From NCBI RefSeq assembly GCF_003991155.1, contig NZ_CP031293.1: 64,000 nucleotides of DNA, one strand, 5' to 3'. Position numbers and translations under genes: made by a program. The notes beneath the pieces were generated by a model. The model saw nothing but the letters and a program-made list of their open reading frames with translations. It made no database searches and was not told the DNA's origin. This DNA comes from Escherichia coli (GTDB lineage: Bacteria > Pseudomonadota > Gammaproteobacteria > Enterobacterales > Enterobacteriaceae). Shown here piece by piece: positions 574 to 61,170 of the stretch. Numbering within the stretch: position 1 is the stretch's first letter; the number at the start of each line of letters is the position of its first letter.

Positions 574-2285
574 TGAGCGAAAAACATCCAGGGCCTTTAG
601 TGGTCGAAGGAAAACTGACAGACGCCGAGCGCATGAAGCTTGAAAGCAACTACCTGCGCGGCACCATTGCGGAAGATTTAAACGACGGCCTGACCGGCGG
701 CTTTAAGGGCGATAACTTCCTGCTGATCCGCTTCCACGGCATGTATCAGCAGGATGACCGCGACATCCGCGCCGAACGTGCTGAACAGAAGCTGGAGCCG
801 CGCCACGCGATGCTGTTGCGCTGCCGTCTGCCGGGTGGCGTGATCACCACCAAACAGTGGCAGGCGATAGACAAATTTGCCGGTGAAAACACCATCTATG
901 GCAGCATTCGCCTGACCAACCGCCAGACGTTTCAGTTCCACGGCATTCTGAAAAAGAACGTCAAACCGGTGCACCAGATGCTGCACTCGGTCGGTCTTGA
1001 TGCGCTGGCGACCGCCAACGACATGAACCGTAACGTACTCTGCACCTCGAACCCTTACGAGTCGCAGCTGCACGCGGAAGCCTATGAATGGGCGAAGAAA
1101 ATTTCTGAACATCTGCTGCCTCGTACCCGCGCGTATGCGGAGATCTGGCTCGATCAGGAAAAAGTCGCCACTACTGATGAAGAGCCGATCCTTGGTCAGA
1201 CCTACCTGCCGCGTAAGTTCAAAACCACGGTAGTGATCCCGCCGCAGAACGATATCGATCTGCACGCCAACGACATGAACTTCGTGGCGATCGCCGAAAA
1301 CGGCAAGCTGGTGGGCTTTAACCTGCTGGTGGGCGGTGGGCTTTCCATCGAACATGGCAACAAGAAAACCTACGCCCGCACGGCGAGTGAGTTTGGCTAT
1401 CTGCCGCTGGAGCATACGCTGGCGGTGGCGGAAGCCGTCGTGACAACTCAGCGTGACTGGGGTAACCGAACCGATCGTAAAAATGCCAAAACCAAATACA
1501 CGCTGGAGCGCGTAGGGGTTGAGACGTTTAAAGCGGAAGTGGAGCGTCGCGCGGGGATCAAATTCGAGCCGATTCGCCCGTATGAGTTTACCGGACGTGG
1601 CGATCGTATTGGCTGGGTTAAGGGCATTGATGATAACTGGCACCTGACGCTGTTTATCGAAAATGGTCGCATCCTTGATTATCCGGGGCGTCCGCTGAAA
1701 ACCGGCTTGCTGGAGATCGCGAAGATCCACAAAGGTGATTTCCGCATTACGGCGAACCAGAATCTGATCATCGCCGGCGTGCCGGAAAGCGAGAAAGCGA
1801 AGATCGAGAAGATCGCCAAAGAAAGCGGGTTAATGAATGCCGTCACGCCGCAGCGTGAAAACTCAATGGCCTGCGTGTCATTCCCGACTTGCCCGCTGGC
1901 GATGGCCGAAGCCGAGCGTTTCCTGCCGTCTTTTATCGACAACATCGATAATTTAATGGCGAAACATGGTGTCAGCGATGAGCATATCGTGATGCGTGTA
2001 ACAGGCTGCCCGAACGGTTGTGGTCGCGCGATGCTGGCGGAAGTGGGCCTGGTGGGTAAAGCGCCGGGTCGCTACAACCTGCATCTTGGCGGCAACCGCA
2101 TTGGGACACGTATCCCACGGATGTATAAAGAAAACATCACCGAACCGGAAATCCTGGCGTCGCTTGATGAACTGATAGGGCGCTGGGCGAAAGAGCGCGA
2201 AGCGGGTGAAGGCTTCGGCGACTTTACGGTGCGTGCGGGCATCATTCGCCCGGTGCTCGATCCGGCGCGCGATTTGTGGGATTAA
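573..2285 (+). CDS. cysI: sulfite reductase hemoprotein beta subunit
   Basis: 570-aa ORF; recognised CysI sequence; translationally coupled to cysJ. Confidence 0.95.
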
Positions 2286-2301
2286 CCATCAGCCCGGTCT
2301 T

Positions 2302-2337
2302 GTAGGCCTGATAAGACGCGTGAGCGTCGCATCAGGC
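2302..2337. repeat. REP (repetitive extragenic palindrome) element between cysI and cysH
   Basis: gtaggcctgataagacgcg...gcgtcgcatcaggc imperfect palindrome typical of enterobacterial REP. Confidence 0.6.
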
Positions 2338-2358
2338 AAGGCAAACAGTGAGGAATCT

Positions 2359-3093
2359 ATGTCCAAACTCGATCTAAACGCCCTGAACGAACTGCCGAAG
2401 GTAGATCGCATTCTGGCGCTGGCGGAAACTAACGCCGAACTGGAAAAACTGGACGCTGAAGGCCGCGTTGCCTGGGCGCTGGATAATCTGCCTGGTGAAT
2501 ATGTACTTTCTTCCAGCTTTGGCATTCAGGCGGCGGTGAGCCTGCATCTGGTGAATCAGATTCGCCCGGATATTCCAGTGATCCTCACCGATACGGGTTA
2601 CTTGTTCCCGGAAACCTACCGCTTTATTGACGAGTTAACGGACAAACTCAAACTCAACCTGAAAGTGTACCGCGCTACCGAAAGCGCCGCCTGGCAGGAA
2701 GCACGTTACGGAAAACTATGGGAGCAGGGCGTTGAAGGCATTGAAAAGTACAATGACATCAACAAAGTCGAACCGATGAACCGGGCGCTGAAAGAACTAA
2801 ACGCGCAAACGTGGTTTGCTGGCCTGCGCCGTGAACAATCCGGCAGCCGCGCCAATTTACCGGTGCTGGCAATTCAGCGTGGCGTATTTAAAGTGCTGCC
2901 GATTATCGACTGGAATAACCGAACGATATATCAGTACCTGCAAAAACATGGCCTGAAATATCACCCATTATGGGACGAAGGATATTTATCGGTCGGTGAT
3001 ACCCATACAACCCGTAAATGGGAACCCGGCATGGCGGAAGAAGAAACGCGTTTCTTTGGCTTGAAAAGGGAATGTGGATTACACGAAGGGTAA
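2359..3093 (+). CDS. cysH: phosphoadenosine phosphosulfate (PAPS) reductase
   Basis: 244-aa ORF starting [14 protein letters not shown]; longer ORF-track start at 2206 rejected in favour of ATG at 2359, which matches the recalled CysH N-terminus and lies just downstream of the REP element. Confidence 0.93.
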
Positions 3094-3112
3094 ATATTGC
3101 TGCTTAAATTAA

Positions 3113-3149
3113 ACGCCTCTGTCTGAAAAGATGGGGGCGTTTTTATTTT
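3113..3149 (+). terminator. putative Rho-independent terminator after cysH
   Basis: GC-rich imperfect hairpin (acgcctc...gggggcgt) followed by TTTTTATTTT. Confidence 0.45.
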
Positions 3150-3357
3150 GCGAGCAGGATTCCTGATTTTAAACGTGAACGCCGCAGGAAGAATCAACAG
3201 GCATAGAATGGCGTTGGGTGCTTGAGGCTGTCTGGCGTTAAGCATTCGCGAGGTTCCAGATGGACAAAAGCCCCAGGCGATATTTCTATCAACCTGAGGC
3301 CAGCGTTCGAACCTAAGCAATTCGGATGTTAGTCTCTTCTTTGCAGGGAGGCAAGAC

Positions 3358-3510
3358 ATGCTGACAAAATATGCCCTTGTGGCAATCATCGTACTGTGTT
3401 GTACAGTACTGGGATTCACGTTGATGGTAGGCGACTCGTTGTGTGAGTTGAGTATCAGAGAACGTGGTATGGAGTTTAAGGCAGTTCTCGCTTACGAATC
3501 GAAGAAGTAG
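3358..3510 (+). CDS. Hok/Gef-family type I toxin (50 aa, small membrane peptide)
   Basis: ORF below the 60-aa track cutoff, translated by hand: [50 protein letters not shown]; hydrophobic N-terminal helix plus SLCE and AYES motifs shared with Hok/Gef/RelF; GGGAGG Shine-Dalgarno 7 nt upstream. Confidence 0.8.
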
Positions 3511-3515
3511 CCACC

Positions 3516-3575
3516 ACGCGGGGTAAAACCCCGCGTACTGAATTGTGATTGTTTGGCCTCCTGCACCCCTTTTTT
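3516..3575 (+). terminator. hok 3' structure: perfect 9-bp stem-loop, fold-back element complementary to transcript 5' region, then T-tract
   Basis: ACGCGGGGU/ACCCCGCGU stem at 3516-3536; GCCUCCUGCACCC (3557-3569) can pair 11/13 with GGGUGCUUGAGGC at 3216-3228; TTTTTT at 3570-3575. Confidence 0.55.
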
Positions 3576-3635
3576 ATACTCTGTTTCTGGTGGCATTGAT
3601 TTCCTGCAGGCAAGGGAGTAATCATTTCAAACCCA

Positions 3636-4673
3636 TTAAGATGCCTTCGCCAGCTCCTTCACCAACGGTAGCATTATCCGCATAACATCACGGCAGCGAC
3701 GTTCTATTCTTCCTGGAAGTGCCTTATCAATATGCTGTTGATTATCCAGTCTTACGTCATGCCAGCTATTTCCTGCAGGGAATGCGGCTGTTTTTGCGCG
3801 TTGCTGATAACCATCCTTATTCCCAAGATTCCAGTTTGTCGCTTCCACCGAAAGTACAGCAATGCCCGCTTTGTCGAATATTTCTGCGTCATTACAACAC
3901 CCAGTGCCTTTCGGATAGTTTTTATTCAAACCTGGATTTGTGGTGGCGGCAATTCCATGACTGCGGGCAATTGCCAGCGCCCGGTCGCGCGTTAATTTCC
4001 TTACTGCTTCAGGTGTTTTTACGCCACTGTTGAAATACAGCTTATCGCCAACAATCAGATTATCGAGATTAATCACCAATAAAGTATTTTTCTTTTCGGT
4101 ATCACTCATGCGCTTGAGTAAATTCTCAGCGCCTAATTTCCCTTCTTCTTCACCACTGGTTGCCACAAAACGAATGCCATATTCGGTTGGCGTATTTTTC
4201 AGGCGTTCAGCCAGCTCCAGCATGACACCTAAACCTGCGGCGTTATCATCCATTCCTTGTAACGTCAGCCCGCCGAGATTGGCATCGGCGTCAGCATCGC
4301 TCAGCGGGGCGTAAGTATCCAGATGCGCCATAATGATGATCTGCTGCGGCGCTTTGCCTTCATGAGCGGCAATCACCGTACTTCCCGTCACGTTATGCCA
4401 GCTCTTGCGATTATCGCGGGCGGTATAAATATACCGACTATTAAATGTCCGAATATCACTGCGATAACCCATTTGCTGAAACTGTTGGCGAATATAATCG
4501 GCAGATAACATTTCTGCAGGAGTTCCGGTCATGCGTCCCGGAAAGAAAGTAGCAATATGTCGTGCCTGGGTATTAGCAAAATCGCCAGGTTTAGGTGACG
4601 AGGCGTGTACGGGGAGAATAAAGCATACGCCGAGCGCCAGGGCAGCGGTACGGTGGCGCAATGCGGAAAACAT
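3636..4673 (-). CDS. iap: alkaline phosphatase isozyme conversion aminopeptidase
   Basis: 345-aa ORF with signal peptide and M28-type peptidase features; convergent with hok. Confidence 0.9.
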   Translation of the reverse strand: MFSALRHRTAALALGVCFILPVHASSPKPGDFANTQARHIATFFPGRMTGTPAEMLSADYIRQQFQQMGYRSDIRTFNSRYIYTARDNRKSWHNVTGSTVIAAHEGKAPQQIIIMAHLDTYAPLSDADADANLGGLTLQGMDDNAAGLGVMLELAERLKNTPTEYGIRFVATSGEEEGKLGAENLLKRMSDTEKKNTLLVINLDNLIVGDKLYFNSGVKTPEAVRKLTRDRALAIARSHGIAATTNPGLNKNYPKGTGCCNDAEIFDKAGIAVLSVEATNWNLGNKDGYQQRAKTAAFPAGNSWHDVRLDNQQHIDKALPGRIERRCRDVMRIMLPLVKELAKAS

Positions 4674-60578: not shown

Positions 60579-60671
60579 GGTGAGGTGGCCGAGAGGCTGA
60601 AGGCGCTCCCCTGCTAAGGGAGTATGCGGTCAAAAGCTGCATCCGGGGTTCGAATCCCCGCCTCACCGCCA
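60579..60671 (+). tRNA. serV: tRNA-Ser (anticodon GCU)
   Basis: 93-nt cloverleaf with long variable arm; GGTGAGG...CCTCACCGCCA; anticodon loop CTGCTAA. Confidence 0.93.
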
Positions 60672-60674
60672 TTT

Positions 60675-60751
60675 GCATCCGTAGCTCAGCTGGATAGAGT
60701 ACTCGGCTACGAACCGAGCGGTCGGAGGTTCGAATCCTCCCGGATGCACCA
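60675..60751 (+). tRNA. argV: tRNA-Arg (anticodon ACG), copy 1
   Basis: 77-nt GCATCCGTAGCTCAGCTGGATAGAG...CGGATGCACCA; anticodon loop CTACGAA; copy-to-gene-name assignment is tentative. Confidence 0.93.
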
Positions 60752-60815
60752 TCTCTTACTTGATACGGCTTTAGTGGCGGTATCAAAAAATCTGCAGTAA
60801 AGTAAGTTTCCCGAT

Positions 60816-60892
60816 GCATCCGTAGCTCAGCTGGATAGAGTACTCGGCTACGAACCGAGCGGTCGGAGGTTCGAATCCTCCCGGATGCACCA
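60816..60892 (+). tRNA. argY: tRNA-Arg (anticodon ACG), copy 2
   Basis: Identical 77-nt sequence; name assignment tentative. Confidence 0.93.
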
Positions 60893-60954
60893 TCTCTTAC
60901 TTGATATGGCTTTAGTAGCGGTATCAATATCAGCAGTAAAATAAATTTCCCGAT

Positions 60955-61031
60955 GCATCCGTAGCTCAGCTGGATAGAGTACTCGGCTACGAACCGAGCG
61001 GTCGGAGGTTCGAATCCTCCCGGATGCACCA
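60955..61031 (+). tRNA. argZ: tRNA-Arg (anticodon ACG), copy 3
   Basis: Identical 77-nt sequence; name assignment tentative. Confidence 0.93.
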
Positions 61032-61093
61032 TCTCTTACTTGATATGGCTTTAGTAGCGGTATCAATATCAGCAGTAAAATAAATTTCCCGAT

Positions 61094-61170
61094 GCATCCG
61101 TAGCTCAGCTGGATAGAGTACTCGGCTACGAACCGAGCGGTCGGAGGTTCGAATCCTCCCGGATGCACCA
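61094..61170 (+). tRNA. argQ: tRNA-Arg (anticodon ACG), copy 4
   Basis: Identical 77-nt sequence; name assignment tentative. Confidence 0.93.

Follow-up and report, generated by a model that had tools for sequence, protein, structure and literature searches.

The closest described systems to the locus analyzed here occupy the same position, downstream of cysH, in other Escherichia coli: sokX of K-12 (b4701), hokX of E. coli B and hok/sokX of UPEC/AIEC strains. Among uropathogenic strains a hok toxin gene and sokX adjoin cysH in 90%, the remainder having sokX alone, as in K-12 (PMC12736100), and the hok gene of the cysH-iap region is homologous to hokX of E. coli B (PMC7232551). Neither hokX nor cysH is mentioned in Faridani 2006 or in the 2025-26 Hok-diversity preprint. 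The closest paralog is hokE/sokE of K-12, with about 79–80% nucleotide identity over window positions 3268-3512, the same architecture, an Rfam leader match of 84 bits, a 60-nt sokE on the opposite strand and no annotated long mok. Also in K-12, hokC(gef)/mokC/sokC and hokB/mokB/sokB belong to the same family, with leader-model scores of 118 and 110 bits and sokC and sokB of 57–59 nt on the opposite strand. Their mok frames differ, mokC being an in-frame extension of 69 codons and mokB an ORF of 55 codons in a different frame. The model of how hok/sok works is that of plasmid R1, summarised in PMC1635323. R1 hok/mok/sok and an IncF plasmid locus in our comparison (L072) resemble the present locus in having a Hok-family toxin, an RF01794 leader (90 bits in L072), a -10 hexamer 6 nt before a GGGUG start, complementary 5′ and 3′ elements, a GC hairpin just past the stop codon and an antisense RNA to the leader, although the plasmid Hok proteins are only 40–43% identical to the one found here.

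The present study concerns a 64-kb window of an E. coli chromosome (the whole stretch of DNA that was analyzed, to which all coordinates refer) and within it the region between cysH (2206-3093, plus strand) and iap (3636-4673, minus strand). An intact copy of the chromosomal hokX/sokX type I toxin-antitoxin locus occupies this region; as such it is already known and ordinary. The identical locus in E. coli 2016C-3878 is annotated cysI-cysH-"Hok/Gef family protein"-iap-cysD. In the window iap directly follows the module with no CRISPR-Cas I-E between them, whereas K-12 has only the leader and sokX, homology stopping at the hok ATG and cas3 following; because K-12 homology runs up to that ATG, the sok promoter and sokX are retained there and hok is absent. 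Some strains carry IS421 about 20 nt past the hok stop codon, which removes the 3′ fold-back element, and K-12 hokE has IS186 19 nt after its stop codon; the window has no such insertion, and no IS element interrupts the module or lies nearby. The region is present whole or in part in 5425 of 5426 complete E. coli genomes, about 4146 of which hold at least 80% of positions 3190-3580. An intact hok/sok-type module with a closed mRNA, antisense control by Sok and leader coupling is very probably the best explanation of the patterns described below.

Identity was established by models of RNA and protein families and by homology across the Enterobacteriaceae. The first-pass annotation, made from the letters of the window, had proposed that the region encodes a regulated hok transcript, and a covariance-model search bears this out: the match to RF01794 at 3216-3373 on the plus strand covers the full model (1–157) at 110 bits against a gathering score of 59 (E 4e-24), and RF01794 is the sole non-tRNA Rfam family in the window. 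Although this family is named "sok", its matches at four curated K-12 loci are on the hok-sense strand, opposite sokC, sokB, sokE and sokX, so that it must be read as a model of the hok mRNA leader; the plus-strand match here marks a structured hok leader in full length and not an antisense RNA. For comparison, one genome per species was scanned, which yielded 56 homologous loci with Hok proteins 72–100% identical, in Escherichia, Pseudocitrobacter, Kluyvera, Klebsiella, Citrobacter, Enterobacter and other Enterobacteriaceae, and 51 distinct transcripts, hereafter the relatives. In the resulting alignment (A1) one row, L066, is mostly gapped owing to wrong coordinates, with counts unaffected.

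The toxin gene itself occupies 3358-3510 on the plus strand and encodes 50 amino acids plus a stop (RefSeq WP_000956458.1). This small protein of the Hok/Gef family matches PF01848 (HOK_GEF) over positions 1–42 of 42, with an E value of 6.3e-10 and 38.9 bits. It scores under the curated cut-offs of both the NCBIfam HokA equivalog NF007290 (53 bits, cut-off 89) and the NCBIfam Hok subfamily NF007279 (39.5 bits, cut-off 73); HokA can therefore be excluded, and the RefSeq name goes no further than "Hok/Gef family protein". Across 50 relatives the invariant residues are M.TKYAL...LC...LCE...E...LA.E..K, the ORF is intact in 50 of 51, variable sites fall 31/16/42 on the first, second and third codon positions, and other Escherichia species encode a protein with 100% identity. 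Judged by this pattern of substitution hok is evolving as a coding gene, and the intact ORF with its mainly third-position variation gives indirect support to a presumed toxic product, which would damage the inner membrane and kill or arrest the cell once Sok is depleted. A Shine-Dalgarno sequence, GGGAGG, lies at 3347-3352 on the plus strand, 5 nt before the ATG, and the GGAGGCAA at this site is invariant in the family. In all folds it is mostly paired, with a probability of being unpaired of 0.25–0.38.

Upstream, the TAGAAT hexamer at 3204-3209 (plus strand), read at first pass as the -10 element of a hok promoter, is retained in that role. In 47 of 51 relatives a TAnnAT lies 6 nt ahead of a conserved GGGUGC; the hexamer has a conservation (mean fraction identical to the window) of 0.84, with flanks at 0.23–0.41. 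The promoter is weak, with a -10 only; no -35 is recognisable in the sequence, as expected for a weak hok promoter. Since a consensus scan called none of the hok promoter, the sok promoter or a plus-strand terminator near 3575, the assignment of these elements is based on conservation and homology. Promoter-like scan matches at 3361-3389 and 3553-3580 on the plus strand were set aside, as no conserved feature fits them. The full-length hok mRNA would run from 3216 to 3575 on the plus strand, about 360 nt, these ends being deduced and not mapped. Its 5′ end is placed where the Rfam model begins, at 3216, and its presumed 3′ end is a T6 tract at 3570-3575. Among loci of differing genomic context homology extends from the -10 to just past the 3′ fold-back element and T tract, and homology with strains in which cas3 is adjacent stops at about 3574-3577, which supports a transcript end there. 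Neither folding nor the consensus scan found a local hairpin before the T6 tract; only a long-range helix abuts it.

That helix is the fold-back between the 5′ element tac, GGGTGCTTGAGGC/GGGUGCUUGAGGC, at 3216-3228 (plus strand, conservation 0.95) and the 3′ element fbi, GCCTCCTGCACCC/GCCUCCUGCACCC, at 3556-3568 (plus strand), which is followed by a C and then the T6 tract. The first-pass annotation had recognised this pairing partner and placed it at 3557-3569, one base off; the pairing it described, 11 of 13 positions, holds, the mismatch being a central UU/UC. In the 64-kb window the exact 13-mer is found once, and so is its two-mismatch complement. Allowing up to two mismatches, three such 13-mers are found against 1.8 expected, so that matches of this kind are not rare by chance and the significance of the pairing comes from folding and conservation and not from a motif count. 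RNA 3216-3575 folds with a minimum free energy (MFE) of -131.3 kcal/mol (z -3.97), with the 5′-3′ helix in both the MFE and the centroid structure and an ensemble pairing probability of only 0.55 for its 6-bp core. If the 3′ end is removed (3216-3540), tac refolds into a local 5′ hairpin. When each relative was folded separately, nucleotides 1–6 paired with a GCACCC core, some 45–50 nt past the hok stop codon, in 50 of 51, a count to be read with the caveat that each relative's 3′ end was located by the GCACCC motif itself; the de novo consensus fold from RNAalifold contains the same tac-fbi helix. The fold-back expected of hok mRNAs, as originally suggested, is predicted by all three approaches.

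Conservation of the fold-back takes the form of retained complementarity. The 11-bp tac-fbi helix is paired in 90% of alignment cells, compared with 37–59% when the strands are slid, and its 6-bp core (helix 1) in 100%. Covariation in tac-fbi amounts to three double-change cells only, and the counting measures are no better than shuffles, so the helix is supported by conserved complementarity and not by covariation. Two substitutions have occurred inside fbi within E. coli, both C>U opposite G. The GCACCC core of fbi has a conservation of 0.94 with flanks at 0.36–0.52; neighboring sequence overall is 0.23–0.52 identical, and the -10, tac and the fbi core stand out as sharp islands. hokE has the tac GGGUGCCUGAAGC. 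In plasmid L072 fbi is followed by a separate GC-rich hairpin; the window differs in that the T tract comes directly after fbi.

The antisense component could be placed by homology to a curated RNA. Mapping of K-12 sokX (b4701) gives a SokX ortholog of 59 nt, running from 3318 to 3260 on the minus strand; it is identical to K-12 MG1655 at 54 of 54 positions over 3313-3260 and differs at two of its five 5′-terminal nucleotides. A minus-strand hairpin GCCUCAGG/CCUGGGGC followed by UUUUGU had been put forward as the terminator of a Sok-like RNA, and it matches the 3′ end of the curated sokX: the terminator spans 3261-3300 (minus strand), with a stem 3300-3293/3274-3267, inner GAUA/UAUC and then UUUUGU, a free energy of -22.7 kcal/mol and z of -2.4 for a folded 63-nt RNA, and conservation of 0.86 over 3263-3300. 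The sok promoter, at 3326-3354 on the minus strand, comprises a -35 TTGCCT (reverse complement of 3349-3354), a 17-nt spacer and a -10 TAACAT (reverse complement of 3326-3331). The -10 lies 7 nt from the start at 3318, and this geometry agrees with the 5′ end of curated sokX; the -35 and spacer are invariant in 51 of 51 relatives, with TAACAT, TACCAT or TACTAT as the -10. At the level of sequence, then, the locus appears to encode in cis an antisense Sok of about 60 nt that has a promoter and a terminator of its own and full complementarity to the part of the leader immediately before the translation start region. Ribo-seq in EHEC gave a ribosome coverage value of 0.63 at the orthologous element (PMC5331693), and Ribo-seq signal at sokX has elsewhere been ascribed to structured-RNA contamination (PMC7580957); these two reports on sokX contradict each other.

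The stretch to which Sok is complementary overlaps a structure of the leader that shows covariation. This Sok-target hairpin, also a helix of the Rfam model, occupies 3296-3336 on the plus strand, with outer stem 3296-3300/3332-3336, inner stem 3303-3311/3321-3329 and loop 3312-3320. It is paired in 86.9% of cells against 29–57% when slid, and 30 cells show double changes against 8.4 +/- 2.4 after shuffling, none of 500 shuffles reaching 30. The 5′ hairpin of the leader also covaries, as does a GC-rich hairpin after the hok stop codon at 3516-3536 (plus strand), which was seen in the predicted folds and has 15 double changes (alignment pair 321/341). By analogy with plasmid R1, the latter hairpin is likely to be the stop for a 3′ exonuclease that defines the truncated mRNA; an mRNA trimmed back to this point would have lost fbi and measure about 325 nt, a counterpart of the truncated R1 hok mRNA. 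In the MFE structure the hok Shine-Dalgarno sequence pairs with CUCUUCUU at 3335-3342, inside the leader ORF described below. No covariation was seen in this sequestering hairpin, and its slid controls are paired nearly as often (80–82%), so that the covariation test is uninformative for it.

A working model may be put together from these elements, in part by analogy with R1. The weak hok promoter would produce the mRNA of about 360 nt, from 3216 to about 3575, and pairing of tac with fbi would hold this mRNA closed and inert. A stronger, convergent promoter within the leader would meanwhile produce the 59-nt Sok, from 3318 to 3260 on the minus strand. As in R1, fbi would be lost when the 3′ end is slowly trimmed to the GC hairpin at 3516-3536, after which the 5′ end would refold locally and the mRNA could bind Sok or, if Sok were absent, be translated. 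Accessibility of the hok Shine-Dalgarno and AUG after trimming in silico moves from 0.25 to 0.28, which is no clear rise, so the activation step is carried over from R1. The stretch covered by Sok ends 8 nt before an ATG at 3326 and some 29 nt ahead of the hok Shine-Dalgarno sequence; since it stops short of the latter, the block is most plausibly indirect. Sok would prevent ribosomes from starting at ATG 3326 and so block hok indirectly. Ribosomes that did start there would melt the CUCUUCUU:GGGAGG hairpin, and the same ribosomes would terminate at UGA 3362-3364 on the hok AUG, from which re-initiation could follow. The locus would by this analogy work like R1 hok/sok apart from a minimal leader ORF lacking a Shine-Dalgarno sequence and the lack of a terminal hairpin beyond fbi.

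The leader ORF is a part of the module in which this locus departs from R1 hok/sok. It has 12 codons and occupies 3326-3364 on the plus strand, from ATG 3326 to a TGA at 3362-3364 that lies over hok codons 2–3 and overlaps the hok ATG at 3358 as AUGCUGA, just as the first-pass annotation had it. That annotation went on to suggest a mok-like translational coupling, and the data are compatible with this suggestion: the ORF and its overlap are real, and against coupling stand the lack of a Shine-Dalgarno sequence, a frame that varies among relatives, an ATG shared with the sok -10 box and a covarying stem, and the missing covariation in the hairpin that sequesters the hok Shine-Dalgarno sequence. 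A canonical mok start (GAGG, 7–8 nt, ATG) is absent in the window, which has GCGTTCGAAC in place of GCGTATGAAC; such a start is found at -51 or -50 in relatives from Klebsiella and Kluyvera and in plasmid L072 at -57, where GAGG, 7 nt and ATG open an in-frame mok of 68 codons, unlike the 12-codon ORF of the window. The ATG of hokE lies 36 nt before hok and in frame, whereas that of the window lies 32 nt before hok and out of frame. In mokC and mokB, Sok overlaps the first 9–11 nt of mok; here it ends upstream of the leader ATG. Two other candidates for a mok were rejected: an N-terminally extended Hok or long mok, as the hok frame is closed by TGA 3295 with no start before 3358, and a mok in the third frame, as the ORF from TTG 3222 closes at 3332, short of hok.

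Among relatives ATG 3326 has a homologous ATG in 45 of 51. At 28 loci it lies 32 nt before hok and opens a 12-codon ORF whose stop, TGA (22) or TAA (6), falls on hok codons 2–3, the change from TGA to TAA in the six being synonymous in hok. At 17 loci it shares the hok frame, 33 or 36 nt upstream of hok, one of these being interrupted by a stop, and at the remaining six the homologous position is ATA, with another ATG at -14 opening an ORF that ends at the same TGA. An upstream ATG-initiated ORF crossing the hok start region is found in 44 of 51 relatives.

An alternative explanation, which concedes the same hok/sok module, is that the 12-codon ORF is not a functional mok and hok is translated directly from GGGAGG. 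ATG 3326 would then be only a by-product of the sok -10 box and of the 3′ arm of the Sok-target hairpin, and control would operate through RNA structure and Sok-triggered cleavage or decay rather than through translational coupling. We regard this as quite possible, if on balance somewhat doubtful. Its attraction is that the sequence of the ATG is largely spoken for, as its A and T coincide with positions 6 and 5 of the sok -10, where the TAnnAT motif is invariant, and its G (G3328) pairs with C3304 in the covarying Sok-target stem. The 20 nt upstream of the ATG contain no Shine-Dalgarno sequence, hok has a near-consensus one of its own at good spacing, the six relatives with ATA and the unconserved frame point the same way, and K-12 annotation gives no mok for the closest paralog, hokE. 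However, Sok (3260-3318) falls short of the hok Shine-Dalgarno sequence (3347-3352), so that it cannot occlude that site directly and would have to act by an indirect route; 45 of 51 relatives keep the G of the ATG though the -10 box does not need a G; the six ATA loci have their substitute ATG with an ORF ending at the same TGA; and an ORF over the hok start region is preserved in the 44 relatives noted above. The curated mokC and mokA, which the in-frame form among the relatives resembles, also start at an upstream ATG in the hok frame. The leader ORF as a putative mok equivalent is plausible on this evidence, and we consider a mok-like role more probable than not.

These patterns could be combined in a broader proposal, that in the hokX/hokE clade mok has been cut down to a start codon without a Shine-Dalgarno sequence, with frame-switching, and that the tac-fbi helix doubles as the transcription terminator; taken jointly this is tentative and, we think, rather unlikely to hold in every part. 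The Sok-target hairpin may carry this minimal mok start codon in its 3′ arm, and single-base indels would move the leader frame between a 12-codon ORF ending on the hok AUG and an in-frame extension of Hok. The tac-fbi helix, which abuts the T6 tract in the absence of a local hairpin, might itself be the terminator. If the proposal is true, what matters is translating through the hok start region and not the leader peptide. The variable mok-like start in the hokX/hokE clade poses a small question, that of coupling kept while the leader peptide is dispensable.

It could also be that the locus is a decaying relic, as are hok loci in K-12, with the toxin no longer expressed. Pedersen and Gerdes 1999, as cited in PMC7232551, report the K-12 hok loci inactivated, K-12 has lost the hok ORF at this very locus, the IS421 insertion of other strains removes fbi, and the hok promoter is weak. 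Decay is nevertheless improbable for the copy in the window, as all elements are present and uninterrupted with no IS element nearby, Hok is unchanged in other Escherichia species, all but one of the relatives have an intact ORF with variation mostly at third codon positions, and conservation is higher in the regulatory elements than in the sequence flanking them. That an ordinary intergenic region with a spurious small ORF resembles a hok locus by chance deserves almost no credence, for although a -10 hexamer or a 13-mer with two mismatches can arise randomly, such a reading is refuted by homology (Rfam E 4e-24, Pfam E 6e-10, 56 homologous loci and a curated orthologous sRNA).

The intact hokX/sokX module is a textbook type I toxin-antitoxin module and has little significance beyond annotation. 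Routine pipelines call the Hok coding sequence and miss the Sok RNA, the leader ORF, tac and fbi, and a map of these elements is useful for studies of chromosomal hok loci and their possible roles in persistence or stress. It is also useful for the variable junction between cysH-iap and CRISPR-Cas I-E, the edge of which coincides with the presumed end of the hok transcript.

The gene order of the window strain is cysH-hok/sok-iap (3093-3636), and neither cas genes nor a CRISPR array was found between cysH and iap in this interval. In comparison with loci L002, L003, L004 and L006, homology of CRISPR-Cas I-E strains to the window stops at approximately 3574-3577, where the hok T tract ends, and that of K-12-type strains breaks at 3360, the hok ATG. 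These end points indicate that the toxin-antitoxin module forms the border of the variable CRISPR-Cas region. On the cysH side, a terminator-like hairpin of 14 bp followed by a T run (3111-3142, plus strand) lies 18 nt past the cysH stop codon and would insulate the hok promoter from cysH transcription.

There was no local hairpin before the T6 tract (3570-3575), which is directly adjoined only by the long-range helix between tac (3216-3228) and fbi (3556-3568). The IncF plasmid hok locus (L072) differs in having a separate GC hairpin 3′ of fbi, absent in the window. The fold-back helix itself may act as the hok transcription terminator, a candidate role. Three independent loci (a variant of hokX as well as hokE and hokC of K-12) carry IS421/IS186 some 19-20 nt past the stop codon of hok, with insertion points at approximately window position 3531 (the break in L004), 708 in L014 and 332 in L012. 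All fall within the GC-rich post-stop hairpin GCGGGG...CCCCGC and sever fbi, and this hairpin looks like a hotspot of recurrent IS insertion.

Matches to Rfam RF01794 ("sok antitoxin") occurred on the hok-sense strand, both in the window (3216-3373) and in L011, L012, L013 and L014. Because the model is sense to hok and the curated sokC, sokB, sokE and sokX RNAs lie on the opposite strand, these matches mark the hok leader rather than an antisense RNA. Upstream of hok, relatives in Klebsiella, Kluyvera and Enterobacter have, besides the -32 ATG, a canonical mok start at -51/-50 consisting of GAGG, 8 nt and ATG (L028, L029, L032, L033, L045, L047, L048 and L054), whereas E. coli hokX lacks it; within one clade the mok start is thus plastic in evolution.

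Elsewhere in the window, a plus-strand tRNA cluster (60579-61170) opens with tRNA-Ser(GCU), after which come four tRNA-Arg(ACG) genes, all four with identical scores against the tRNA model.
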